DNA of 63,628 bases, filler included, from Reclinomonas americana ATCC 50394 (Eukaryota), in the NCBI GenBank assembly GCA_048213135.1. It is 16 parts of 16 records of this genome, joined end to end, with 100 filler letters (N's around TTAATTAATTAA, not from the genome) between each part and the next. Parts side by side here need not be neighbours in the genome. Positions count along the whole stretch, not along the records: positions 51,112 to 54,237 come from AFZH01021838.1; 15 more parts are not named here. One strand, 5' to 3'. The notes under the pieces were generated by a model that made no database searches, was not told the DNA's origin, and saw only the letters and a program-made list of their open reading frames with translations. Within the stretch, counting starts at the first letter, position 1. The number at the start of each line of letters is the position of its first letter. Position numbers and translations under genes: made by a program. Below, one piece after another: positions 158-54,421 of the stretch.

Positions 158-1448
158 CTAGCGCCACGACACATTGCCGATGCCCTGGAACGAGTTCTTC
201 AGGCCGCGCGGATTCGCCCACGCCGAGTTGAAATGTGTGTCTTCCTCGTCCTCCGTGAGGCGCTACGATGCCAGTGAGCAACAACAACAACAGCTCGTCA
301 CGCATGACAAGCTCTTTACCTTTTGCTCCTCCTGCTTCTTGTGGTAGTACGAGATGAGCTCCTTTTGCTGATCAGTGTCCAGCGGAGCCTCGCGCACCGG
401 TGGACCAGAGCCACGCTGCAGGCACACAAAGCAAGTGTCAGGCTCGCATCATAGCACAGAGGCTCAGATACACACACACACACACACACCTTGGCCAGCT
501 TGACAATGACTTTCGTCTTCTCGTTGCGGCCGACAAACTCGGCCAGCGACTTGTCGCGCGTCAGCTGCTTGCCGGCCCACCACACCACACACGAGTCGGG
601 ATTCTGCCAGTCCGCCGTGGCCTGCCCGCCCTCCTCCGCATCACGGCCCTCCAGAATCACCATGGCCGGATCGTGCTCCCCCAATCCCTCCGGGTACACA
701 ATCATCAGGGCTCCTCGCAGGTTCGCAAACTGCTCTTCCATCATCTCGTTGGTCAGTGGTCGTCGCGTCTCGTCCAGCTGCCACGCACCATGTGATCAGT
801 TATGCTCTCTCGCACACCACATGTGAGAGAAGAGGGGCAAGGCGCACCACTGCAAGAGCCTCTCTCCGCGTTCGATCCAACAGTGCGGCCATGTCAGCAG
901 AAGGAGCTGTCCAGCACGCGATCAGTGAGCAAGAGTGTGTGTGAGAGAGCAGCGTGTGTCTGTGAGTAGACGCAACGACCCGTGTATCGCAAGCCACTGG
1001 GGTCCACATTGGGATTGGAGGTGTCGACTGAGTGCACAGAGGTGAGACGACTGTGTGTGCATGAGAGAGACTGTGAGCAGAGAGACGCAACGCTCAGTCT
1101 CCAGACTTGACATGAACGCCTGATACTCGTCTGCGGTGCGTGCCTTGCCGTACTTGCTAATGTCATCAACAACCTGTGTGTGTGAGAGAGAAAGAGTGAG
1201 TAAACGCGCGAAACTGCCACCGTCCACTCTTTGACCGATGATCACTCTTTTTCCTTGTCTCTCTGCTTCTCTCTCTCCCTTGAGTGTGTGTGTGTGTTGC
1301 ACGCAACTGCACACAGGCGCACTAGCCGGCACCTGTTGTTCCACATGAGCGCCAGTTGTCGGGCCACGTCATCACACGAGGAGGCCGATGGGATCTCCAC
1401 CAGGAACTGCTCCTTCTCCGTCTTCCCCTTCAGATGCAAGAGAACCAT
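158..1448 (-). CDS. CFAP298: Cilia- and flagella-associated protein 298 (C21orf59/Kurly homolog), multi-exon
   Basis: Spliced product MVLLHLKG...RLCAVVDDISKYG...LRGALMIVYPEGL...WWAGKQLTRDKSLAEFVGRNEKTKVIVKL...ISYYHKKQEEQKRLTEDEEDTHFNSAWANPRGLKNSFQGIGNVSWR*. It matches C21orf59 motifs end to end. GT-AG introns; TAG at 158-160. Confidence 0.93.
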
Positions 1449-16500: not shown

Positions 16501-19318
16501 CGAGTAATCTGCGCACAGTATGACACCTCAGTTGACGACAGTAGTCACGGAGAATCACCGCACGGAGACCGACCTTGTGCGGAACTTGCAGCAGGAGGCG
16601 CATCGGTGACCTCCTCTGGCTCCACATAGTCTGGCAGGCGGCGCAGGCCCACCGGCCCACCCAGCTGTTGATGTTCGTTTTCCACAGGTCAGTTTCGTCA
16701 GGCGCATGGCGAATGTACGAATGACGCAACTCGCTCCTCCAGTAGTGTATCCACTGAACGCAACACGGACGCCATGGGAGGCCGCAGTCGTGCATCGTGT
16801 TGCCAACATGCTTCGATTATGGCCCGCACCTCACTGCCACCACAACAATGTGGTAAGCAATGAAGTCAATACCCCAGCGCAAGAATCATACAACGCACGG
16901 GCTGCAGTCAGCGGGGATGGCCGGTCGATCTCCTCGTCGCACAGCTGCAATCACTACTTCGGGGTCCCGACAGCCAACAAAGGGAACCTGCGTTGGAGGG
17001 ACGGGGTGAGTGAATGCAAATGTCGATGGTGAGCGGTAGGCGTCTCTAGAGCTCACCTTGCCAGTAATCATTTCCAGTAGAATCATTCCTACAGTGTCGG
17101 TGAGCAAAAATGTCTGACAGTGCCGACACACTCCGCAATCACACACCAAATGCGTAAACGTCAGCGGCGGCTGTCAACTCTGGTGTGGCCTCCAGCAACT
17201 CAGGGGCCAACCATAGCACGTCACCGGCGATCAGGGTGCTCGCAGTGGAGTACGACGAAGAAGTAAACGAGCGAGACCAGCTGGCTGCCTCACTGTGTGC
17301 GCGCGCGAGCATGGGATCAACAAGTGAGCACTCCATGAATGAGGCACGTGGAACCAACCTCTTTGGTATCGGCATCCCGTAATCAAAGAGCCTACCGAAG
17401 CACAGTGGTGAGCGCGACGACGGAGGACAGGCGCACACGCAACGAAGCAATCAGTACGCCACTTGAGTTGTCGATTGTCGGCGACAAGGATGGTTTTCGA
17501 TGACAGCGAACCGTGAATCACACGATGACTGTGCAGGAAGGCCAGGCCGCATGCCACATCTGCCAGCGCGCGAGTCAGCAGTCACAGTTATCACTAAACG
17601 ATCGCAGATTGCGGCGTCAATGTACACTGTCGACGCACCTCGTGCCAAGGCCAGAGTTTCACTCTCCGTGAGGCCACCCTCACTCGAATGGAGGAGGCTG
17701 AACAGTGTCTGTGGACGACCACACATCGATGAGTGAACAACTGAGCTGCGTACATGCATGCATGCACACGTACCCCGTCGGGCAGCATCTCCAGCACTGT
17801 GCACGCGTGCGCGGCCTCGTCGCACACAGCATAGCAGGGTGCCAGATTCGGGTGAGTGAGAGCCGACAGTCGACGAGCTTCGTCGTACAAGTGCCTGTGA
17901 AACGCAAGCTTTGAGTCAACCGTGCACCGCCAGCAGCAACAAATGGAATGCACGCACCCCGCAGCCAGCTCTGTCAGTGTGCCAAATCGTCGAAGTGCCA
18001 CCGGAAAGCCACTGCAGGTGCCAGCCAGCAGCTCCGGCACAAAGAGGTCTACTGGCGCCGCACTCTCGACTTCCGAGTTGCGTACGTACCGGAAGTGGGG
18101 GAGCGAGGTTTCTACGCGGACGCCAGTGAGCGCGACAATCAGCAGAGAGTTCGCGATCTGCTGCGCGAGCGCACCTCGATCGAGTGCGCCAAGGAGCTGC
18201 ACGGTGGCGTGCATCACGGCATCCCCTGTCGCAGTCTCCTGTGACTCCACGAGCTCTTCGATGCGCGCCACGGCCGTCTCCAGCTGCCAATGGCGGAACG
18301 TGTGAGTCTGCGACACACTGGTGACAGTACACGAATGAGGTGTATACCTCGGCCGTGAAGGTGGCCAGCTTGAGCGCAGCTGCACGATTCAGGTACACAG
18401 TGGCCAGTGCGCGTAGCACCAACTCCAGATTGCAGCTCGCCTCCTCATAGCCGATTCCAAAGCGAGCGCGGAGCATTCGCACTCGCACCTCGAGTGCCAC
18501 CACGTGATCTACACGCAGAGAATAAGAACGCAACGACCCCCCATTCGCCTGACAAGTCGACCGCCACGCACCCAGATACGGCTGCTCCAGCAGCACAGCA
18601 GTGGTCTCGAGTTGCGCCTGCATCTCGGACGCCGAGGCCACGCCACACGCCTCCATCATGACCTGCACATGCTCCGCATCGTGCGACACCTCCGACGCCA
18701 GCTGCTTCAGCACCAACGCCAATGCCGCCCGATCGGTCGCTGTCTCATCACACACAGACAGATGAGCCCGCAGCGCAAACCAAAGACACCACACACGCAC
18801 ACACGAGAGAGACAAGTGCCTCAACTCTCGTCCCGCACGTCGCGCTCCCACCGAAACTCGCTCCGCAAGCACAATCCCAGTCGCTCCTGACACGCCTCCA
18901 GCTGCGCCGAGACCGTCGCCACATCACAGTGCCCCAGAGTCGCTGCCAGCTGACCTCTCCGTCGCAGCAGCCGTCGCAGCCACACCCACGATGCACTCAC
19001 CAGTGGCGATGCAGCGCCATGATGCTCCAAGATCATCTCAATGTGTCGCACGCACTCGCCAACGCGATCCACCACGCCCAGCAACGGTACATCCAGCAAG
19101 CCACGCTCCTCCAGATCTATGCGGCGAGGATCAGAGACAAAGACAGCGAAAGAGCATGACAGGGACACAAGCGACAAACCTTGCACTGATTCAATGATCA
19201 GCACCGCTCTCTCGACCAAGTGGCGGCATTTGGCTCCATGCGCGCGCACCGACTTGACTTGCGTGTTCAACCGCTCGACGCTGTGCGTCAGTCGACGCAC
19301 TCGGTCGTCGCTGCTCAT
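13566..19318 (-). CDS. MLKL-like N-terminal helical domain + TKL-type pseudokinase + ARM-like repeats + FYVE finger
   Basis: Hand-spliced in one frame from ATG 19318 to TAA 13566. N-term VKSVRAHGAKCRHLVERAVLIIESVQ. Kinase fold VALRRF...HPNL...GLAFLHSHRVIHGSLSSKTILV...KLFDYG...WLAPE...DVYAFG...CWQHDARLRP. FYVE WEPD..CARC...RRHHCRCCGRVMCGAC...RVCVEC. Confidence 0.8.
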
Positions 19319-25455: not shown

Positions 25456-28400
25456 CTACATGAAGTACGTCAGCGTCTCTTTTCGTCGGTTGCCTCCTTC
25501 ACCGTACATCTCGTTCCACTGGCGCAGCTCCGTCATGGTCTGTGCGTCTTCGCACACACTGGCACTGACCTCCTTTTGTGCCTTCTCAAAGTCCGACAGT
25601 CGCAGCGGTCGTAGCTCCGGTGCCGGTGCTGTGGGATCTGGCGGAGCGACAAATGCACCCTTGCTGATCTGCTTGGCCTCGTCGGCGAGGAACTCGCGCA
25701 CAGGCTGAGGTAGCTCGGTGAGCAATATGCGAGAGAGCACACATACAGGATGGTTCGAAAATACCTGATAGGCTGCGCACACACACAAGTTGCGCAGGTC
25801 GCTGCCCGAGTAGCTCGGCGTCATGCGAGCCAGGTCGAGCATGCGCAGCGCCGGATCCAACTGTTCATCCTTCAGGATCACCTCAAAGATGCGCACTCGC
25901 TGCTCCTCGCTCGGCGAGTCGACGAGGATGCGACGAGGCATTCTCCTCAGCACGGCCTCGTCCAGGTCGAACGGGCGATTGGTAGCACCGAGTACCAACA
26001 CGCGCTCTGCATTCATTGAAGTGTGTGAGTGCGCAGACAAGAAACACAGCGATCTGTCGACATGCACTCGTACCAGTCTCCTTGCTCTTCAGACCGTCCC
26101 AGCCCATCATAAACTCATTCTTCATCTTTCGCATCGCCTCGTGCTCGCCGCGACTCGCCCTCTTGCCGAGCATGCTGTCGATCTCGTCGACGAAAATCAC
26201 ACACGGTGCCAGCTTGCGAGCAAGCGTGAACACGGCCGCGGCCGCCTTTTCCGCCTCGCCAAACCACTTGCTGGTGATGGCGGCGAGGTTGACGTCTGTG
26301 GGAGGGTGGGTGGAGGGTGAGCATTGCATAGAAAAGAGGGAGAGGATGCGAGAGCGCGGGCGCAACTGAGAAAGTTGGCGCCACTCTCTGTGGCCACAGC
26401 CTTGGCCAACATGGTCTTGCCGGTACCCGGCGGACCAAAAAGCAGCACGCCCTTCACCGGCTTTGACAGTGTCGACCGCCGGAAGAGCTCCGGTCGCTGC
26501 AGCGGCAACATGACGAGCTCACGCAGAGAATTCTTCGTCGACTCCAGAGCACCAATGTCTGCAACAGCAAAGTGAGAATGCGCGCAGTGACATGATGAAT
26601 CTCAGCAGACTGCCCGCCACACACCATCAAAGTGCACTCCAATGTCGTCAGCCATCACCACATCCGCCAGCAGCCGCTGCTCGAATTCGTTCGAGGTTTC
26701 CACATCCTGCAGCGATTTCTGCAAGCCATCACAATAAAGCGCGTGAGCGGCGAGACAACATTCACACCGACTGAGATAAAGAGAGAAAGGTTAGTGCACG
26801 AAACTGGTGGCGAGCGCTCGCGCAACAACGAGTCGTACAGATTCATGGCGGCCACCATACTCTCGCCTGACAGCACCAGCTGTCGCACCGGTGCGGACCC
26901 TTCGGCTGACGCCCCTGCCGCTGCAGTAGTAGTAGTAGTTGTTGTTGTTGTTGTAGTTGTTGTTACTGCAGCAGTCTCCGAGTCACCCGTCTCCATGGGC
27001 GCGACTTCTGCTTCCACCACCGTCTTTGCAGGCTCCTCGGTCGCCGCCTCAACCTTGTGTGACTTGGAGAGCTCTGTGCTGAGGGCCCACGCGCAGACAG
27101 TTTCCACTGTGGACTTGCTCAGGGTCTCTTTTCGAAGCTGTGCCTCCGGCAATGAAATGCACTGCATGCGGTTGCGTGCCATGACCCACTGGAACAGATT
27201 TGCGTTGCGACGACACCGATCCAGCTCCGTGTCGCGTTGCATCTGTGTGTCCCACTCGGCGGCCTGTGCCAGTGTCATTCGTTGAGCAACGACAACCACG
27301 TGAGAAGACACACACACACGCACAAACCTGTGCCCAGTGCGCTGGCTTGGTGATGGCCACGCGATGCGGGAACAGATTCTCCACCAAATGCTTCATCTCC
27401 ATTGTGTTGCGCTCGAACAGCATCAAGCCACTGATGACCGCAACAGATGAGCGGCAGACACAACAGTGGAATGTACACGCACAGACACAAACACACGCAA
27501 CTCCATGTCGTTGACCATGGACGACACGTTGGAGGCGGCAATGCGCTGAACAATGCGACTGCTCGGCCGGCCGTCGCGAGGTGGCTCCGGAACTGCGACA
27601 CAGAAGGACATCGTATAAGAAACTTGGCGAATAAACAGAAAGAGGAGCGTGTACGCGCCTGCCACAGACGCTGTGACTGCGAGAGCGTTGCTCGAACTCG
27701 ACGATTCAACTGGAATGCCCAAGACGCTCGACACTGCAGGGGAGTGAGCGAAGAGCAAAGCGCGCAGCACACTTGTTATCACGCGCACATTGACCACCGG
27801 GACCACCGAGACCGCCAAGCAGCAACGACGACAGCGACCGCGATGACGACGGAGCAGAGCTCGGATCCAAGTCGTTCACCTTGGAGGCTGCAACACAGCG
27901 TGAGCGACGCTGAATACAAGAACGCTGCAACAGTCGCGACCGCATACTCACCAATCACGCAAACTTGGTGACCTTGAATCTTGGACATGAAAGCGCGGAG
28001 ATCGCGCATGAAGTGTGGCGTGGTGGACAGAATCTCGTCCACCGCTGGTATGTACACGACAATCTTCTCCTCGGCTGGCCGACGCGCAATCTCCTCAAAG
28101 AACGCACGACTGCACGCACATCCGACGGAGGTGAGCCAATTGCGTCGTGACAATGCAGTCGAACAAGTACGCAACTACCGCAACGCCGTCTTGGTGACAG
28201 AGTCGGAAGCCACCGCCGATGCCAGTTCCGACCGACTCGAGCTCCCCGAAGAACGCATGGCCAAACGAGACGCTGCGCAAGTGGTGAGTGGACGACAGGG
28301 CAAGCATGTGCGATGAACAGAACAACGCACCAGGTATCATACGAACGGAATGCACCGACGAAGACGACGACGACGATATCGATGGTGGCGGCGGCGGTGG

Positions 28401-31400
28401 TGGCATGACTGGCGAACCGGCTGCCGCCAACGCGTCGTACATACTGATCACCACACGGCGTCGCGCACTGCTGTTGCTGCTGCCGCTGCCTCCCATGCCC
28501 GACATGGACGAGGAGGATGCAGATGGAGGCATTGGCGGCGGGCGTGGCGGCGACGGTGGCATGTTCTTGTCTGTCGCGCATTACTCCGCAAGTCAGAGGA
28601 GTGCACACCGCAAAGAGGGCGACNNNNNNNNNNNNNNNNNNNNNNNNNNNNNNNNNNNNNNNNNNNNTTAATTAATTAANNNNNNNNNNNNNNNNNNNNN
28701 NNNNNNNNNNNNNNNNNNNNNNNCGTGCGAGCAAACTCGACCTTGGCGCCCACGCGGCAGCTGGCGCCACTGCGGGAGCCGGAGATGTTGGAGCCGCCGT
28801 CTGCAAGAGGTGACAAAGAGCAGCTTATTAATTAACAGTAGAGCTGGCGTGCAGACGATTGCTGGTGCACCAACCTCGGCGCTCGCCGGCCTCCTGCTCC
28901 TCCATTTCATCGGCAATGCTGCGCGAGGCAACAGCATCCAGCCGGTACAAGTCGGCGCCAAAATGATGCGCCAGCGCCATGCACAGCTGCTCATTGTAGC
29001 GCGTGGTTCCTGCATTGAGCAACAGAGTGAGAGACATTCGCAATCTATCGTCGCTCAGTCACACTCAACCTTTCGGCGACACCAGAAGAATGCGCTGACT
29101 GACAGACGACAGGTGTTCGATGTACTGCGCTGCTTGCGGGTTCTCGAGGTACAGACCCATGGATCGCACAAGCTCTTCCCGAACGGCCGGACTGCACGTG
29201 CGGTGAGTCCTCTCTGCCTACCTCAGCAAGGCCGAAGCTCTGGTGGGAGCGACGCAACGAGAGATGATACGGGAAGGTGTCGAGTGTCACGCCGAGATCC
29301 GTGGCACGGGTGACGGCCTCGTGAAGCATGGCACGCACGGCAACAAGAGCCTCGCGGCGAGAATCGTCGTCTTCCACCACAGCGCCGCCGTCGACGGCAC
29401 TCTCCAGAGCACTCGACAACTCATCACCACTGCCGGCGAGTCCACTCTCTGCGACACGTAACAGTCGATTAACAACCGCAAAGGGGTGCATTCATGAAGA
29501 TGGCTACTCACCGTCCTTGTCGTCGGCCAGCAGCGAATCGGTGCTTGCTGCCTTGCTGCGTTTGAGTGAAGACTCCGACTGCCGGGCACAGTGACAGTGA
29601 GGGTGCGGTCGAAAGAGGTGCGTGGAATTCTCTCCAAACCTCATCCTTGGTGACAATGTCTCCACGCATGTCATCGAGGGTACGCTTGCGCGTCAGCGGC
29701 TCCCCGACGCTTGTCGAAGGTGCTGCTGCTGCTGTTGGTGGTGTTGTAGTTGGCACACTCTCTGATGCCGTCGTCGTCTCACTCATCTCGGTATCCTCGC
29801 CGCTGGTGACGGTGACAGCAGTTGGTGCGGCAGACATGGTCGTGTCGGTGGCGGCCACCTCGGTGGTCTCCAGTGGTGTCACTCGCGGAGTGATGGCAGT
29901 CGCCTGAGATGTGTGCTTGGAGGCGGGTATGTCGTCGTAGCGCACAAAGATCTACAACAAGCATGCGTTCGGCAAGGGAGAGTAGAAGAAGTGGAGGAAA
30001 GCGTGAGAGATGGACACGCAACAAACTGATAGACGGTTGATCCTAGAACACTGATCTCGTCGCCCGAGTGAAGCGGCGACTGCTGCTGCTTGCGCAGCTG
30101 GCGGCCGTTGATCAGAACAGGCGTGCGATTGGTGTTGGAGCGCATCAGCGGCTGCCCGTGCAGCACATGGATGGAGCAGAGTGGTTTGATCGGCATGCGC
30201 GAATCGCGGAGCATCAGGTCACACTGCCGCGCCCGCCCGACAGAGAAACTGCTGTTGCGTAGCACAATCGATGCCGATGGAATGCCGGTGGGACGCGAAA
30301 ACTGCGGCACCAGCACACCCCACGGTCGCCCCTCGCCGCCGCCGCTGCTGTTGTCGCCCGGCAAACCACTGTCGCCCACCTCCAGCGAGGACGACAAGGA
30401 GGACGGGAGAGCAGGAGGCGGCGGCGGAGGTGGCGGCTGACCAGCAGCAGCACTGGAAGCAGAAGAAGCAGCAGCAGGAGTCGATCGCATGAGTTGTCGA
30501 ACACAGGCCTCTGCATCCTCAACGGTTCGGATCGGACGCCATCGATTTGCACCACCACCACCACCACTGGCGGCAGCACCGCCCTCCCGTCGCGCCATGG
30601 CCGCCGCCATCAGATCCTGTCGCGACAGAGCCGACTGCACATACAACAGGAGAAAGAGAGAGAGAGAGACAGACGATAAGCAAACACACGCGCCACACAA
30701 CCAATCATCGCACAGCCAAGCACCAACTCGGACAATCGTCGACGCTGCACACAACACACCACAACAAAAGTCAGCCATCAAAGCACCAAGCAAGAACACG
30801 ACACAAACAAACAAAACACACCGTCACAGCATCGGCCGCCAAGGAAGGCGCATCGGCATCTGCAATTCCCGCGCACACAGCGGTCAGACTGAATCGAGAC
30901 ACTGACGACAGACAAGACGCACTGTGCCCACACGCACTGCTCTCTCTGACAAGCACATACACGCACGCACCTTCACTCTGTCGCACTGGCGCCTTGTTGA
31001 CCGCGGCCGCCACTGCCGCGTTGACAACAGAGCCCAGCAGAGAACTCAGCTGTTCAATAGTGAGCACAGTGAGCACGCATACACTCATAGACAGTGTGTG
31101 AGGAAGAACAAAAAGAGGCGCGCGCGAAAAAAACACGTCACCTGTGCCTCATCAGTGTTGCCACTGACAGCAGCCGCGGCGGCTGCTGCGGCTGCGGCAG
31201 CTGCAGCGGCGATTACAGTAGTGGTGTTTACAGAACGTGTTGCGGGCTGCTGTTGTTGTTGTTGTGAGGAGGATGCTGTTGTTGGAGGTGCGTCTTCGTC
31301 CATGGATTGTGGAGGTGGATTGTCGACGTCGAGTTGTCTCTGCGTTGTTGAGGTGGCAAGAGCAGGCGGTGGGGGTGGTGGTGGGGGTGGGGTAGGAGCA

Positions 31401-43620: not shown

Positions 43621-44826
43621 TCAGAAACAAAGATGGGGATCACAGAAACACCGGTGCACCACGACTGCGGCCTCCTCCACGATAAAGCAGCGCAGAACCA
43701 TCTCCGGCAAACACCGAGAATCCACCTCCTCCTCCTCCGTTCCTGCCCCTTCTCGCTGCATCTCTTGGACAGCACGCATGGCCACATGCGCCGCGTCCAT
43801 CTCCAGTCGAGCAAGACCACACGGCGTTGACCACACGCGCACTGTGCCATCGCCACTCCCGCTCACGATGTGCTGGCCATCGGGGGTGATGGCAACACAG
43901 AAAACGCGTCCGGTGTGTCCCTGCAGCCGTTGCACTTCTTTGCCGCTCGCCAGCGACCACACACGCACTGTCATGTCGTCGCTGTCAGTCACAATGTGTT
44001 GGCCATCGGGAGTGATGACGAGGGACATCACTTCTCCTTCTCCGGGGTTTCCTTCAAATCGTCTCAGTTCTTCCCCAGTCGCCAGCGACCACACTCGCAC
44101 TGTGTTGTCAGAGCNNNNNNNNNNNNNNNNNNNNNNNNNNNNNNNNNNNNNNNNNNNNTTAATTAATTAANNNNNNNNNNNNNNNNNNNNNNNNNNNNNN
44201 NNNNNNNNNNNNNNCTCGTCGTAACTCGCACTGATAATGAATTGCCCATCGGGGCTGACCGCCACTGCAGTCATCCATTCTGTGTGTCCCTCCAATTGCG
44301 TCACTTGCGCGCCACTCGCCAGTGACCAGACACGCACTGTTGCGTCCCGACCTCCACTCACAATTAGTTGACTGTCGGGAGTGACGGCAACAGAAGGCAC
44401 GCCGCCAGCGTGTCCCTGCAGTCGGTGCACTTGCTCGCCACTCGCCAGAGACCACACGCACACTGTGCCATCGGTTCCTCCGCTCACCGCGTACTGGTTA
44501 TCCCCAGAGACCGCGACAGACAACACCTGTTCAGTGTGTCCCTCCATTCGATGCTCTTCTTCGCCACTCACCATCGACCACACGCGCACGGTGCGATCGT
44601 CACCACCGCTCACAATGTGCCGGCCGTTGGGCGTGACGGCGACACACCACACAGAGGAAGTGTGGCCCTTGCACAGTCGCACTTCTTGCCCACTCGCCAG
44701 CGACCACAAGTGCACTGTTCCGTCTCCGTCGCCGCTCACAATGTGCTGACCGTCGGGAGTGGTGGCGACAGCGAGGATTGCGTTTTTGTCGCCGTGCGGG
44801 AGAGTGCGGCAGCAGCGGAAGGCCAT
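43621..44826 (-). CDS. WD40-repeat protein, paralog B (spans gap 44115-44214), intronless
   Basis: MAFRCCRTLPHGDKNAILAVATTPDGQH... with the same repeats and C-terminal tail as paralog A. Confidence 0.88.
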
Positions 44827-45351
44827 AGGGAGAGAAGAGAGGGAAGGGAAGGAGAACTGGGAGAGACAGGGAGAGAGGAGAGAGGGGGAGAGAGGGAGGA
44901 GAGAAGAGAGGGAGAGGGATGACAGGGGAGAGGAGAAGGGAGAACAGAGGGTGATGTTGTTGCTGTTGCTTCTGTGTGTGCGTGTGCTTTGTGAGAGGAC
45001 AGAATTCTGTCAGTCCTCCTCTGACGGAGACGTCCTCTTCGCTCTTCGTGCTTGCGAGTCTCAAGGTGTTTTCGACGAGGACATGATGCTACTGCATGTC
45101 TCTTTCTGTCAGGCGTCGACGTTGATGCTGCATCGCCGCTGGATTCAAGTGAGCAAGCGACTCGCGATCGGCGATCTGGAAGTGGGGTGAGTTGTCTTCA
45201 TTCGATCGCAACAAGCCGCCAACTGCCCAGCGTAATCTACAGTTTTAGTCGAAGGAAAACACACGAGACTTGTTGCCGATCACTGGTGATGCTCATGTTG
45301 TGCATTGATCCGTGAAGATCCTATTATTATTGCCAGCTGCATGTCCACCGC

Positions 45352-46543
45352 TCAGAAACAAAGGTGAGAATCGCGGAAACACCGGTGCACCACGACTGCG
45401 GCCTCCTCCACGATAAAACAGCGCAGCACCATCTCCGGCAAACACCGAGAATCCACCTCCTCCNNNNNNNNNNNNNNNNNNNNNNNNNNNNNNNNNNNNN
45501 NNNNNNNTTAATTAATTAANNNNNNNNNNNNNNNNNNNNNNNNNNNNNNNNNNNNNNNNNNNNTCCTCCGTTCCTGCCCCTACCCGCTGCATCTCTTGCA
45601 CTGCACGCATGGCCACATGCGCCACCTCCATCTCCAGTCGAGCAAGACCACACGGCGTTGACCACACGCGCACTGTGCCATCGCCATCCCCGCACATGAT
45701 GTGCTGTCCATCGGAAGCGACGGCCACAGAGCACACCTCCTCAGCGTGTCCCTGCAGCCGTTGCACTTCTTTGCCGCTCACCAGCGACCACACACGCACT
45801 GTCGTGTAGTCGCAGTCAGTCACAATGCGTTGGCCATTGGGGGTGACGACAATAGACATCACTTCCCCAATGTACCCCCCAAACAGTCTCAGTTCTTCCC
45901 CAGTCGCCAGAGACCACACTCGCACGGTGCAGTCATCACTTCCACTCACAACGTGCTGACCATCGGGGGTAACAGCCAAAGCCGCCACCCAGCCTGTCTG
46001 CCCCTTTAACTGTCGCACTTGCTCGCCACTCGCCAGCGACCAGACACGCACGATGTTATCAGTACCGCCGCTCACAAGGAGATGACTGTCGGGAGTAATG
46101 GCGACAGACCGCGTGAAACCATCATGTGCCTTCCACTGCCGCACTTGTTCCCCACTCGCCAGCGACCACACGCACACTGTGCAGTCCTCACTCCCACTCA
46201 CAACTAGCCGACCGTCGGGAGTGATCGCCACACACAACACCGAATCCTCGTGTCCCTCCATCATCTCATACACCCTCTCGCCACTCACCACCGACCACAC
46301 TCGCACTGCGCAATCGTCACCGCCGCTCACAATGTGCCGGCCATCGGGAGTGACGGCGACGCAGTTCACAGCGTACGTGTGCCCGTCGTAGTGTCGCACT
46401 CGCTTCCCAGTTGCGAGTGACCACAAACGCAATGTTCCGTCTCGTTGACCGCTCACAATGTGCTGACTGTCGGGTGTGATGGCGACAGCATCGACCAGGA
46501 CGTTGTCGACGTGGGAGAGAGTGCGGGAGCAGCGGAAGGACAT
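45352..46543 (-). CDS. WD40-repeat protein, paralog C (spans gap 45464-45563), intronless
   Basis: MSFRCSRTLSHVDNVLVDAVAITPDSQH..., seven WD repeats, tail ending HRCFRDSHLCF* (TGA at 45352-45354). Confidence 0.9.
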
Positions 46544-46664
46544 AGGGGGAGAAGGGGGGAGAAAGGGGGGGAGAAAAGGGGAGAGAAAGAGAAAGAAAGA
46601 GAGAGAGAGAGAGGAGGGAGGAGAGGAGAGAGGGAGAGGGAGAGGAGAAGGGAGAGCAGAGGGG

Positions 46665-46711
<47 letters not shown>

Positions 46712-47522
46712 GCTTCTGTGTGTGTGCGGAAGGAAAAGGGAAAAGGAAAGTGGAGAGCAAGGAAAAGGGTGAGAGAAGTGGCAAGGAGGGCGGAGAGCAA
46801 AGAAAAGGAGGGAAAGAGAGCAGTGTGCTTGCAGATGAAGATGACAACTGCAAGAGAGAGACAGACACACACAGAATGCAACACAATACAAATGGTTGCA
46901 TTGGTGCTCGCGTCTCATTGTCCACACTTTCAACTTTTTTTGTTGTTCCCGAGAATCCACAAATGTCCAAGACGAACGTGTTGCGTTTCCTTTTGCCACA
47001 CACTCTTGCACACTCTTGCATACACACACGTGCACGCACTTTTTTTGTTGTTCCGTTGTCTGTGGTGCCATGTGCCTTGTGTGCCTTGACACACACTCAC
47101 ACGCTTGCTCACACACAAAGCATTGTCGTGCGTGCGTCTGCTCGTCTCCTCTCAGTTGTCTTATGTACTCATGTGCTGTTTGTTGAGCGAGAGAGAGTGA
47201 CTTTGAGCTGTCTCATGGTGTCTCAATCACGCTCTCTCTCTCCTCTCTCTCTCTCTCACGCACACACACACAAACACACTCTCTCCTCACTCACTGCCTC
47301 TTTCCCTTCACACTTCTCATTGTCGTCTTTTGTTGTCTCGGAGATGCGAGAAATGTCTGCCAACTTTTTGTCTTTTTTTCCCCCCTCACTCACACACGCA
47401 NNNNNNNNNNNNNNNNNNNNNNNNNNNNNNNNNNNNNNNNNNNNTTAATTAATTAANNNNNNNNNNNNNNNNNNNNNNNNNNNNNNNNNNNNNNNNNNNN
47501 CACTCTCTCTCTCCCATAATAG

Positions 47523-48683
47523 GTACTTTGACATGACCATTGGCGGCAAGGCTGCCGGCCGCATTGTCATGGAGCTGCGCGGTGAGTGAATCGCACATTT
47601 TGGCGCGAAAGTATGCGCACATCTCCTCTTCTCACTTGCGCTTTTTGTCGGGTGGCAGGCGACATTTGCCCGAAGGTGTGTGTTTGTTGTTTGACTGTTG
47701 CTTGCCTCTTCGTCGTCATGCGCCCTGACTCGCTGTGTCGTGGCAGACGGGTGAGCTCAAATTCGTTGGGCGGGAGAATCTTTGCATGTTGTTGGGCTCA
47801 CCTCTTGTGTGATAGCTGAGAACTTCCGCGCGCTGTGCACGGGCGAGAAGGGCTTTGGATTCAAGGGCAGCAAGGTTTGCCTCTTTGAGGTGGAAGAGAG
47901 AGACTCAGGTGGCTGACTTTTCGTGGTCATGCAGTTCCACCGCGTTATTCCGGACTTCATGTGCCAGGGCGTGAGTCTTTACTGTCATGATGTGCGAGTG
48001 TGGAGAGGACGAGTGACTGATCATCTCTGTTTTTCGTATCAGGGCGACTTCACCCGCGGCAACGGCACTGGTGGCAAGAGGTTGGTGTCATGACAATTTT
48101 GGGCGATGATGTCATGTCGCTGACTGTCGTGTGTGTGCATACAGCATCTACGGCGAGCTTCGTAAGCGCTGCAGTCATGTGTGTTGAATTGAGGGAGTTT
48201 GATGTGCTCACTGTCGTGCGGTTTTGCGTTGCGGGCGACAGGAAGTTCGCTGATGGTGAGTCGACAAGGGGAAAGGGGAAAGGGGAGGGAGAGGAGAAGG
48301 GAGAGGAGAAGGGGAAGGGGAGGGAACGGACAAGGGGAAGGCAAGGGAGAGTGAGAGAGGCTGCATTTGCTCTCTCTCTCTCTCTTTGTCTCTTTCTCTC
48401 ACGCTCCATCGCTGTCTCTCCCTCTCGCTCTCTCACTGTCTCTCTTACGTTCCATTGTTGTCTCTCTCCTGTCACTTTTTACTCTCACTGCCATCGTGCG
48501 TGTGTATTGTGTTTTGACTGCCGTTGCACGCCTGTTGCTGCTTGCCGTCTGTCTCGCTGTCATTTCTCGCTCTCCGCTTATGTAGTCGCGGTATTGTCTG
48601 CTTCTCTTGCGTTTCAGTACACTTATCTCGACTCCTTGCTTGTGTCGTTCTTCCGTTCTTGTTTCTTGACCTCCTCTCCTATC

Positions 48684-48732
<49 letters not shown>

Positions 48733-50208
48733 GCGCGCGCGGGGCTACAAGTATACACACGCTGTCATGTTTCGACTGTACGCTTCTCCTGTGTGACTCA
48801 ACGTCCCCTCCCACAGAGAACTTCACCCTGAAGCACACCGGCCCGGGAATCCTGTCGATGGCCAACGCCGGCCCGAACACCAACGGCTCGCAGTTCTTCC
48901 TGTGCACCGTTGCGTTTTGCCACTTGCGTCGCCAGTGTGTGCTCCCTCACTCTCACTCATCCCTCTCTTGCCAATCTGCAGTCCAAGACTGAGTGGCTCG
49001 GTTCGTGGCGGTAGTGCGCGCGTTCTCTCAGTCGACAGCTGTGATTGACTTGCTCCCGCGGCGCAGATGGTAAGCACGTCGTGTTCGGCTCCGTGACTGA
49101 GGGCATGGACGTTGTGCGCGCGATTGAGGCCGTGGGCTCGCGCAATGGCGCCACCTCGAAGGATGTGGTGATTGCGGTGAGTGGGAGGAGGGGATAGAAA
49201 AGGGGAGAAGGGGAAGGGAGGAGAAGGGCAAAGTGGGGACGGGAGGGTGGAAGGAGGAAGAATCTGTGTTATTGACTGTCTCCTGTATTGCGCTTGTATA
49301 TGCGTCATGCGCGTCGCAATATGGCATTCTGCGCATTCGCCGCTTTCTCTCTTGTTTGCACAAGCATTCTTGTAGTTTCTACGCGGCTTCATTCCCGCAT
49401 GAGTTTGCGCTTGGAGAGATTTCTCCCCCTGAGCTTTCTCCCTCATTTTGTGGACGCGATCAAGTGTCCATTCCTCTCCGTCATTCTGGGATCTGCGCCG
49501 CTTTCTCTCTTGTTTGCACAAGCATTCGTGTTGTTTCTACGCGGCTTCATTCCCTGATGAGTTTGCGCTTGGAGTGCTGTCTCCCCCGTTCTGTGGACGC
49601 CTTTTTGTGTCCATTGCTCTCACGCCTTCAACAGGGAATCCTTTCCTCTGTCATTCCATTAGGATGCGTGCATTTCTGCCTTTCAAGCTTTCCTCCATTC
49701 CTTGTGGGCCTCGCATTCTTGCTCTTCATCATGCACTCCATCTCGCTCCTTTTCTGGGAGGTGTGTTCCGACTTTTTCGTCTTTCATTCTTTGTGGGAAC
49801 GGCATTCATGCTCTGTAAAATGCAATCCGTTCCTCTTTTCTCATTCTTGGTGTTGAAGAATGCGTGTATTCCTGGTGTCTGCTCTCGAACTGTGGACGGC
49901 GGTGTTTTCTTTCTGTCCTCCATCTGCACTAGCATTCTCTCCTCTCCGCCTTCTGGAAGCAGCGGCTAAGGTGCATTACTACACTGCGTTCATTTTCTCT
50001 CTCTCTCTCTTTCTCTCACTCACTGTGATGCTATTTTGTATCATTTCCTCTTCTAAGAGTGCGCTCTATCCCGTTGAATGCGTGCATTTCTTCGGCCGTC
50101 TTTTCCGACTTGCTGCTTGCATTCATTGTGGGAATGACATTTTTGCACTTCAAATGCACTCTATCTCTACTTTCTGGGAGCACAGACAGCGTGCTAATTG
50201 TGTACTGC

Positions 50209-50241
<33 letters not shown>

Positions 50242-50293
50242 ATTGCATTGCTCACCCTTCCCCTTTTCCTTCCAGGACTGCGGTGAGCTGTAA
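47523..50293 (+). CDS. Cyclophilin A-type peptidyl-prolyl isomerase (first exon in gap; 12 visible exons)
   Basis: Exons 47523-47581, 47659-47675, 47747-47750, 47816-47874, 47935-47970, 48043-48080, 48145-48156, 48242-48255, 48817-48908, 48982-49000, 49067-49176, 50276-50293. They give YFDMTIGG...[57 protein letters not shown]...[16 protein letters not shown]...[10 protein letters not shown]...DCGEL*. Confidence 0.95.
49337..49600. repeat. Direct duplication (period ~158 nt) in a cyclophilin intron
   Basis: cgccgctttctctcttgtttgcacaagcattc...gagtttgcgcttggag occurs twice. Confidence 0.85.
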
Positions 50294-51006: not shown

Positions 51007-51304
51007 AAGAGNNNNNNNNNNNNNNNNNNNNNNNNNNNNNNNNNNNNNNNNNNNNTTAATTAATTAANNNNNNNNNNNNNNNNNNNNNNNNNNNNNNNNN
51101 NNNNNNNNNNNGAACAGCGAAGCAGGAAAGGAGCACGAGGACAAAGGGAACGGGAGAGAGAGAGAGCGAGAGAGCGAGAGAACGTGTGTGAGAGAGAGAG
51201 AAGGAAAGAGAGAAGGAAAGGGGGACAGGATTGCCACAAACTAAGTGAGAGCACATCTCCTTCTTGTCTCTCCAGCTTTCTCTCTCTCTCTCCTGCTTTC
51301 TCTT

Positions 51305-51337
<33 letters not shown>

Positions 51338-54084
51338 CTTAAAAGAGAGAGAGCGAGAGCAACCAAGAGAGGATCACATCACCCTGAGTAACTCCCAGTG
51401 CAGAAAAAACATGAGAAGCGGGAAGAGGGAAGAAGGAGAAGGGTTGAATGGGAAGGGGGCGAGGGACCGAGAAACAGAGGCGGAGAGACTGGAAAATAGA
51501 GACAAAGAGGGGTTGCGGGAAGGAAGCAGCGAGAAGAAAGAGGAAATGCGTGACAATATGGAAAAGGGATTCGGGAACTCAATCGTCGAATGGAGCGAAG
51601 AAAGAAAAAACAGGAAGAGGCAAGCACAGAGACAAATCTTCGAGAAGGAGTGTCATGGAAGGAAAAACAGAAGATAGAGGCACCACTTCTTCCATGCTTT
51701 CCTTTCCCTTTCTATAGCACTCACCGGTGGTGATGAAGAACTGAGAGCCGTTGGTGTTGGGGCCGGCGTTAGCCATCGACAGCAGGTACGGGCGGGTGTG
51801 CTTCAGGTTGAAGTTCTCGTCGTCCTGCAGGGGGGGTGAGCAGAGTGCGACGTCAATGGCACATCTTGACAGGTACGCAACGAACTTGCGGCCGTAGATG
51901 CTCTCGCCGCTGTGCGCGTCACAGAGTGAGTGAGAATGATGGTGATCGCAAGACAGGTGTGGAGAAACGCACCCGCGGCCGTCACTGTTGGCGATGGGGG
52001 TAAAGATACACAAGATGGTGAGACTCTGGAAGCATTCGGACACAAACAGTCAACGAACCCACGGGTGAAATCGCTGTGCAAGAGAATGCAACAATCAGCA
52101 ACGCAGATGCAGAATCGACGTGCAGTACACAAGACTTACCCCTGTTGTCAATACAGACGAGTGATGCAGACGAAGAAAGGTGAGCAATATACAGGAGTGA
52201 GAGGAATGGGAGGGATGGGAAACGAAACTCCCTGGCACCTGCATTTACACACAACAACGTGAGCGTCTTATTTCAGCAGTTGAAGATACAGCGGGTATTA
52301 CGCACATGAAGCTCGGGATGATGCGGTGGAACTGTGGCAACGAAACACGCGAATGTTAGTCACAACGACGAGAGGGAATGGAAGGGGAACGGGCAGGAAG
52401 AGAGGAGAAGGAAAGAGATGACAGGAGAAGGAAAGAGATGCGAGGAGAAGGACAGCGAGGAGAAGAGAGAGCGATGGAAGGAGAAGAGGAGAAGGGAAAA
52501 CAAGAAAACGAGACTTGAGAACGAACGAGAGCAAACAGAAGACCACGACGGCGAGGAGAAGAGGGAGCGATGGAAGGAGAGAGGAGGATGAAGAAGGAGG
52601 AAGAGAAAAAACAAGAAAACGAGACTCGGTAACATGCAACGAAGGCGAGGAAAAGATGGAGCGACGGAAGGGGGAAAGCGGAGAACAAAAACTAGAAGAG
52701 TGAGGCACAAGAAGAAAGCAAGGGACAAGAAAATGACAGCAGATGGCGAGAAAGGATGGATGGAACAGGCGAGAAGAAACCGAGTTGACTTCTCTTCTTT
52801 GAGTGAGGGGGGAGAGGTGTGCACAAACACACACACAATTTCTCATTATGCCCCCCTCTCTCCCTCTCTGCGTGCATGTGTGTGTGTTCTTCCTCATTCA
52901 CTCTGTCTCTCTCTTCCCCCATCTCTCTCTCTCTCTCTCTCTCCCCTCTCCTTCCCGCGCACGCTAACCTTGCTGCCCTTGTAGCTGATCGCCAGGAACA
53001 CACGCAAAGGCAACAAATGTGAGACAGAGATCAGCAGTTCATACTGAACTCGACAGGCGAACGCACTGCAGCGACTTGCCGCTCCTGCACACACACAATC
53101 ATGAGCTACCACAATGAGGACAAATCAATGACATGCACTGACAACTCACGCTCCCGTGCCCTTCTCGCCCGTGCACAGAGCGCGGAAGTTCTCGGCTGCG
53201 CGCAGAGCACAAGTGTTAGCGCGGTGGGAGGCAAGGGGAAAGGTCGAGCAAATGCAACTCACCAGTCTGTGGGATGAAGGAGAATCATCGGCAGGAGCAA
53301 TTACAGTGCGATGTGAGCACGATGGAGCTCAATCAGAAGTCGTGGATTGCACACGTACCCTCGGGACGACGTCGGCTGCGATGAAGAATGAGAATCGCGT
53401 CCAACGAGAAGCATCGAGAAACAAGAAACTCACCGAACAGCTCGAACACAACACGGCCGGCCTTCTTGCCGCCAATCTGGAGAGCAGGAATAGAGTGAAT
53501 GCGCTGCAGCAAGTGGTCGCTGGCTTTCCGTCTCCTCTCTTGCCCATGCGATCTCTGCTGTCTCTTCTCCTTCATCCGAATGCTTGGGTCGCTCCGTCTT
53601 TCACACTAACACACGAACGACTTCATCCCTCTCCATTCCTCTCACACACACAAACGAACAACGAAGACTGCGCTGCGTTTCTGTGTGCACCCTTTCACTC
53701 GCTGGTTTCTGGCTCTTCACTTTATCACACTCCTTCCCCATTCAAGCCGTTCTCTCTCAAACACACAGTCTACAACTTCTCTGTCTCTCATTGGCGAACT
53801 AATGAACAAGTTTGTCTCTGCACCGCTGTCTGATCGAGTCGTTCTGTCACACACAAGTACAATCGTACAACTCAGTCCCTGCAGCTCTCTCTTTCTCTCT
53901 CGCTCTCTCTGCACTCATGCACAACATTGCCTTTGCAAGCGCTGTCGCTCATTGAGTCGCTCTCTCTCACAAACGCACAAACTTTACTCCCTGCAGCACT
54001 GTTTCTCTCGACCCTTCTCTCTTCTCTCTCTCACACACAAAATCAAACGCACAACTTACTCCCTGGAACACTGTTTCTCTCGCC

Positions 54085-54214: not shown

Positions 54215-54421
54215 CTCTCGTCGTCGTACTCGTACGTNNNNNNNNNNNNNNNNNNNNNNNNNNNNNNNNNNNNNNNNNNNNTTAATTAATTAANNNNNNN
54301 NNNNNNNNNNNNNNNNNNNNNNNNNNNNNNNNNNNNNCCCTTAACCTACCCTAACCTACCTACCCTACCTACCTTACGTACGTACGTACGTACGTACGTA
54401 CGTACTCGTACGTACCGTACT

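Follow-up and report, generated by a model that had tools for sequence, protein, structure and literature searches.

A cyclophilin gene of Reclinomonas americana ATCC 50394 (GenBank assembly GCA_048213135.1) probably contains an internal coding exon of only two nucleotides (nt). The gene, here called gene A, lies on the minus strand of a 63,628-nt stretch of DNA made up of parts of 16 records of this genome, filler included; we refer to this whole stretch as the window. The exon consists of the bases GG at 52141-52140 and falls within QGGDF, a motif of the active site. We consider it likely that these two bases form a genuine internal coding exon and that the gene, which encodes an A-type cyclophilin and is very dense in introns, is intact; we think it equally likely that the exon is used in the main mRNA of the gene. 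If this is true, the exon is among the shortest coding exons known, and the enzyme whose active-site motif it helps to encode is universally conserved. A gene finder that missed the GG would call gene A broken or mispredict its protein.

Gene A is complete from start codon to stop codon (54642-50636). Its 172 codons are spread over 15 exons, which measure, from first to last, 24, 43, 17, 4, 46, 18, 16, 26, 10, 2, 15, 12, 28, 100 and 155 nt (plus the stop codon in the last). Fourteen introns thus interrupt 519 coding bases, and all of them are of the GT-AG type. With the 2-nt exon included, the conceptual product is gap-free and 172 residues long. Single exons are enough to identify the family: PF00160 in Pfam is matched by exon 15 alone (E = 2.7e-10, 41.1 bits against a cut-off of 21.7) and by exon 14 alone (E = 1.4e-08, 35.6 bits), and among solved cyclophilins in the PDB, 122 distinct sequences are matched by exon 15 over their C-terminal 45-49 residues, with a best E value of 4.1e-14. 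A database search with this last exon, limited to longer proteins, returned 22 matches among 42 candidates, none of them identical; identity was 72% or less where at least 86% of the query was covered, and up to 83% for partial matches. The whole spliced product scores 282 bits against a profile that we made from 15 homologs. The residues of human cyclophilin A that we take to be catalytic or in contact with cyclosporin are all present in the translation with the 2-nt exon, QGGDF included. Judged by its sequence, the product is an ordinary single-domain A-type cyclophilin; the unusual part is the structure of the gene and not the protein.

Three 100-nt runs of N lie in this region (47401-47500, 51012-51111 and 54238-54337), each with the same 12-base linker, carrying stops in all frames, in the middle of the run. 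They are scaffold joins of a draft assembly. Because 54238-54337 and 51012-51111 fall inside introns 1 and 14, the lengths of these two introns are nominal. No N run lies near 52000-52400, that is, near the 2-nt exon.

Why are two isolated bases needed at all? The answer lies in the reading frame and in the motif. The initial annotation had described a 10-nt exon, an 87-nt intron, the GG, a 66-nt intron and a 15-nt exon, and all of its coordinates and lengths were exact on re-reading, as were the flanks that it gave for the GG, CAG before and GTAAGT after. It was also correct that skipping the GG shifts the frame; three stop codons then appear. Its further statement that no other GT-AG solution exists did not hold. 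We enumerated all solutions that, between 52238 and 52059, remove one or two introns of the GT-AG or GC-AG type, none shorter than 20 nt. Forty-six of them are in frame and free of stops, and 40 of these keep both flanking peptides. The simplest of the GT-AG alternatives among them removes a single 150-nt intron, 52223-52074, and changes the motif to QGVSDF. Exactly one of the 40 solutions that keep the flanks restores QGGDF, and it is the one with the 2-nt exon. The QGGDF pattern is present in 15 of the 22 homologs fetched, while a sixteenth (P0002) starts inside the motif; every full-length homolog inspected has kept it. Against the profile of 15 homologs, the product with the 2-nt exon scores 282.1 bits and its QGVSDF rival 276.0, a preference of 6.1 bits. 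The GG is needed, then, for both the frame and the conserved motif, though an in-frame solution with an altered motif exists.

The two bases also have the anatomy expected of an ultra-short coding microexon (3 nt or less): an AG directly upstream, a GT directly downstream and an intron of normal size on either side. The other 18 short introns of gene A and its neighboring paralog, gene B, measure 57-92 nt with a median of 67, so that intron 9 (87 nt) and intron 10 (66 nt) fit this class. The long introns of the two genes (n = 4) measure 561-1142 nt, and a merged intron of 150-155 nt would fit neither class. The arrangement exceeds chance: CAG-GG-GTAAGT, an 11-mer, has a single copy in the window, counting both strands together, against an expectation of 0.03, and a match was found in 3 of 100 shuffles. 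The shorter pattern AG-GG-GT occurs 14 times on the two strands of the window, with about 0.02 expected per 150 nt, and the exon 10 site scores best of the 14.

We scored the splice signals with two local matrices. One was built from 18 other introns, every intron flanking a tiny exon having been left out. It gives the exon 10 site 7.6 bits as an acceptor and 4.7 bits as a donor, ranking it fifth of the 448 AG-N2-GT sites and first of the 14 with GG. The other matrix was built from 22 introns. It scores the donor and acceptor of intron 9 at 2.3 and 5.9 bits and those of intron 10 at 6.8 and 6.6 bits. Five AG dinucleotides lie in 52245-52050; with the 22-intron matrix, three of these score positive as acceptors, and they are the three that the model uses. 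The donor at 52223, on which the 150-nt intron depends, has no positive score with the same matrix. Of the 24 introns modelled in the two genes, 21 have a branch-like CTNAY motif within their last 60 nt. The motif reads CTCAC in intron 9 and CTGAT in intron 10, about 39 and 21 nt, respectively, ahead of the acceptor. Folding of the RNA from 52250 to 52050 gave no significant result (z = -1.83; 5 of 200 shuffles folded as well).

Gene B, the paralog, lies tail to tail with gene A on the plus strand. Its first exon is lost in the N run at 47401-47500. The two proteins are identical at 111 of 153 positions; the synonymous divergence (dS) of the genes is 0.54 and the ratio of nonsynonymous to synonymous divergence (dN/dS) is 0.42. 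Five intron positions are common to both genes. They include the two introns that flank a 4-nt exon and the intron between the two glycine codons of QGG, which is intron 9 (A9) in gene A and B5 in gene B. As A9 and B5 share it, the donor position after the first glycine codon is ancestral. Exons of a few bases are evidently spliced in this organism, since the 4-nt exon has been kept in two diverged genes. The 2-nt exon, in turn, exists because gene A has an extra intron, intron 10 (A10), beside an old one.

Several points weigh against the reading of GG as an exon. An in-frame GT-AG alternative exists, and the support for the exon comes from genomic sequence; for these two reasons the term obligatory, which the initial annotation had used, is too strong, even though the sequence evidence favors what it said of the need for the exon in motif and frame. 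The donor of intron 9 is weak, at 2.3 bits with the 22-intron matrix or 4.2 bits with the 18-intron matrix. GTAAGT is not the favored local form of donor: the favorite is GTGAGT, and GTAAGT is found in one of 24 donors, that of intron 10 itself, at 4.7-6.8 bits. Moreover, the matrices and the size classes are built on our own models of two genes, which makes them consistency checks and not independent proof. Gene B has no second intron 2 nt after B5, so the 2-nt exon is not conserved in the paralog; the 4-nt exon, by contrast, is common to both. A dN/dS of 0.42 between the paralogs means that constraint is not strikingly strong. Finally, no close ortholog was found among 80 metagenome loci, the best being 73% identical over the last exon.

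What else could account for the sequence? The main mRNA might lose one GT-AG intron of 150 nt, 52223-52074, the internal CAG-GG-GTAAGT being a coincidence; the protein would then read QGVSDF, with one glycine replaced by Val-Ser. Such an intron is canonical, in frame and stop-free, a single splicing event suffices to remove it, and its donor, 5 nt from the one that the microexon model uses, shares the GTT type with it. Its cost is a motif broken in a place where every full-length homolog inspected keeps it (the 6.1 bits noted above), a donor that earns no positive score, a length outside both intron size classes and a unique 11-mer left unexplained. We regard this alternative as distinctly unlikely. 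The QGGDF mRNA might instead be made without an internal exon by removing one non-canonical intron of 153 nt (52227-52075), whose ends would be TT and CA. In that case one of the two G's would belong to the upstream GT and the other to the downstream AG, because moving both borders of the merged interval inward by one base produces the same mRNA. This identity matters for the interpretation of transcripts: a mature cDNA reading CAG GGA GGC GAT would not be decisive, since both models yield it. The other 23 modelled introns of the two genes all start with GT or GC and end with AG, however, and a 153-nt intron turns the internal acceptor and donor, two branch-like motifs and two normal intron lengths into coincidences. 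It is in our view the most improbable of the alternatives by a clear distance.

The remaining alternative is that gene A does not work here, either because it is a duplicate of gene B that is decaying or is not transcribed, or because a two-base error in the draft assembly mimics the need for a microexon. The window is indeed draft sequence with three 100-nt gaps, two cyclophilin copies lie side by side and the dN/dS value is moderate. Yet the frame is open across 15 exons with 14 canonical introns between them, and the active-site residues of human cyclophilin A are all found in the conceptual translation. An insertion or deletion error would not create a matching CAG-GG-GTAAGT in the middle of an intron, and the 52000-52400 region has no gap close by. 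A non-working gene is thus unlikely, and we return to the 2-nt exon as the probable reading.

How would such an exon have arisen? Comparison of the two sequences suggests that it most likely did so through the arrival of a second intron 2 nt downstream of an older one, which the paralog has kept, or else that the paralog lost this second intron. Nine introns of gene A are absent from gene B. Six of the nine are in phase 2 (introns 5, 6, 8, 10, 11 and 12), and introns 10, 11 and 12 each follow directly after the GG of successive glycine codons. An all-against-all alignment of 20 short introns found nothing above the shuffled range (best score 24, null maximum 28), and so no sign of a mobile intron family. 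A bolder idea is that introns were gained here in a local burst, of which the two neighboring cyclophilin genes preserve the record: a housekeeping gene would have been cut up into microexons, and a new intron 2 nt from an old one would have created the 2-nt exon. We offer this idea tentatively and think it unlikely. If the pattern were true genome-wide, exons of less than 3 nt would be spliced routinely in this organism, with relaxed donors (T at position +3 in 8 of 24), and it would provide a natural system for asking how the spliceosome handles exons smaller than its own footprint.

Splicing across the two bases would most likely proceed by intron definition, in which the short introns (57-92 nt) are recognized one by one. 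That introns of this size accompany exons of as little as 2 nt argues for recognition across introns rather than across exons. In intron 9, the weak donor at 52228 would be paired with the CAG acceptor at 52142; in intron 10, the GTAAGT donor at 52139 would be paired with the CAG acceptor at 52074. When U1 small nuclear RNA binds a donor, its contact takes in the final exon bases ahead of the GT. At the A10 donor, what precedes the GT includes the acceptor AG of A9, which a U1-type footprint there would therefore overlap. Because both introns cannot be fully engaged at their shared junction, A9 and A10 are most likely removed in sequence, and A10 may go first because its sites are stronger. 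This combination of intron definition and one-after-the-other removal, which the initial annotation had also put forward, is a reasonable inference; it is likewise the model proposed for a 1-nt exon of Arabidopsis. If it is true, the 2-nt exon together with the shared 4-nt exon would mean that exons far below the footprint of the spliceosome are tolerated in a housekeeping gene, in support of intron-by-intron recognition.

Table 1. Features of the two cyclophilin genes and other genes recognized in the window
Feature	Positions	Strand	Remarks
Gene A exon 4 (4 nt)	53263..53266	-	Thr codon and first base of Ala codon; skipping shifts the frame
Gene A exon 6 (18 nt)	53067..53084	-	Phase 2 on both sides; most of the 7-residue insert
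Gene A exon 8 (26 nt)	52306..52331	-	Ends within the Met codon of FMCQGGDF
Gene A exon 9 (10 nt)	52229..52238	-	Ends after the first Gly codon
Gene A intron 9, A9 (87 nt)	52142..52228	-	Phase 0, between two Gly codons; weak GTT-type donor, CAG acceptor
Gene A exon 10 (2 nt)	52140..52141	-	Putative 2-nt exon GG; first two bases of the second Gly codon
Gene A intron 10, A10 (66 nt)	52074..52139	-	GTAAGT donor, CAG acceptor; in gene A only
Gene A exon 11 (15 nt)	52059..52073	-	
Gene A exon 12 (12 nt)	51973..51984	-	
Gene A stop codon	50636-50638	-	From conceptual translation
Gene B, cyclophilin paralog	47523-49176 and 50276-50293	+	Tail to tail with gene A; 11 modelled exons, then the last coding exon
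Gene B 4-nt exon	47747..47750	+	Same codon position as gene A exon 4; synonymous third-base difference
Gene B intron B5 (72 nt)	47971..48042	+	Phase 0; separates the Gly codons of QGG; counterpart of A9
WD40 protein	44167-47212	-	Recognized by Pfam
AAA ATPase	25459-26601	-	Recognized by Pfam
L22	32155-32643	+	Recognized by Pfam
CFAP298 fragment	319-795	-	Recognized by Pfam
FHA-domain frame	29879-30823	-	Recognized by Pfam

Some other features of the two genes deserve mention. The alignment of the proteins places a 7-residue insert in the gene A product, absent from that of gene B, at the site of the insert in divergent-loop cyclophilins. Dropping exon 6 leaves the frame intact; the resulting product would lack the loop and would exceed that of gene B by one residue at this place, which makes exon 6 a candidate cassette exon on the basis of its sequence. 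C. elegans cyclophilin 3 (PDB 1dyw) is likewise an A-type cyclophilin with a divergent loop insert. In gene B, intron B7 (48157-48241, plus strand) keeps the conserved IYGEKF only as a GC-AG intron; with the GT that follows five bases later as its donor, the frame would be lost. The last coding exon of gene B follows an intron of 1099 nt and lies about 340 nt beyond the stop codon of gene A on the opposite strand, so that the 3' regions of the two genes probably overlap. Intron 14 of gene A (after 51725) and B9 of gene B (after 48908) are one nucleotide apart in the aligned coding sequences; they fall at the same codon, in phase 1 and phase 0, respectively. The offset may reflect intron sliding or independent gain.

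The splice sites of genes A and B share two habits. T stands at the third intron position in 8 of the 24 donors, which is unusual for spliceosomal donors, and CAG ends 23 of the 24 acceptors. Elsewhere in the window there are further AG-N(1-5)-GT sites that score at least 5 bits on both sides with the local matrices, for example at 1285, 7939 and 35144 on the plus strand and at 16901, 34245 and 61186 on the minus strand.

Among the other genes in the window, the WD40 reading frame has only generic WD40 matches. The WD40 gene has large uninterrupted reading frames, so the extreme intron density is no general feature of the window. A bacterial-type L22, probably organellar, is encoded by a further reading frame, which has matches at 37-44% identity. 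Taken together, these other genes, a CFAP298 fragment among them, suggest a flagellated, intron-bearing eukaryote. An Rfam search of the window gave no match. In the metagenome loci the motif is uninterrupted in 44 of 80, and the split QGGDF architecture is absent from all 80. Four regular-expression matches to the split architecture were rejected as chance, there being no cyclophilin peptide on either side.

It remains to place gene A among known systems of unusual splicing. In a spliceosomal twin intron (stwintron), one intron sits inside a splice signal of another, and the outer intron gains that signal only once the inner one has been spliced out. The arrangement in gene A is different, as A9 and A10 each have their donor, branch-like motif and acceptor complete at the level of the genome. 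Nor is it a recursive splice site, because its AG and GT are separated by two bases. The likeness to the zero-nucleotide ratchet points of Drosophila recursive splicing (bioRxiv 10.1101/006163; PMC8605326) lies in the layout of the sites: there too, as reported, an acceptor adjoins a donor within what appears to be a single intron, and splicing takes two steps. Ratchet points keep no nucleotide and serve for the removal of very long introns, whereas exon 10 would keep 2 nt between introns of 87 and 66 nt.

Closer parallels are found among exons of a few bases. Exons of less than 3 nt are rare but already known, and gene A is not conceptually new; with 1-nt exons validated in plants and Fusarium, it represents no new kind of biology. 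A literature search combining cyclophilin and microexon produced, among the matches listed, no report that joins the two. Exons of 2-5 bp have been reported in Arabidopsis, Drosophila and human (Volfovsky, Haas and Salzberg 2003, as cited in PMC12940212), and human MPC1 is described as having a constitutive 4-bp exon (PMC9929638); in size they belong with the 2-nt and 4-nt exons of gene A. In the CYP621A P450 genes of Fusarium, a 1-nt exon has the backing of 20 orthologs and of SRA reads (Nelson and Syed 2026, PMC12940212). As described there, and as in gene A, the tiny exon lies inside a glycine codon of a highly conserved motif, an apparent intron about twice the usual length betrays the hidden exon, and G is favored because it fits both splice-site consensuses. 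The gene family and the organism are others, and that exon has 1 nt where exon 10 has 2.

The constitutive 1-nt exon of Arabidopsis APC11 has been validated, and its authors propose intron definition with the introns removed one after the other (Guo and Liu 2015, PMC4674806); the same paper cites the 9-nt exon of potato invertase, where the downstream intron is removed first. The 1-nt exons of APC11 and VPS55 are reported to be conserved across land plants, together with strong, conserved GTRAGT donors (Yu et al. 2022, PMC8831610). These exons resemble the putative exon 10: each is an internal coding exon of less than 3 nt between ordinary short introns, essential for the frame, missed by annotation and followed by a consensus-type GTRAGT donor. 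They differ from it in length, 1 nt as opposed to 2, and in the kind of evidence, for the plant exons are backed by reverse transcription PCR, reporter assays, RNA-seq and conservation across land plants, whereas exon 10 is read from the genome and is absent from gene B, the one paralog available.

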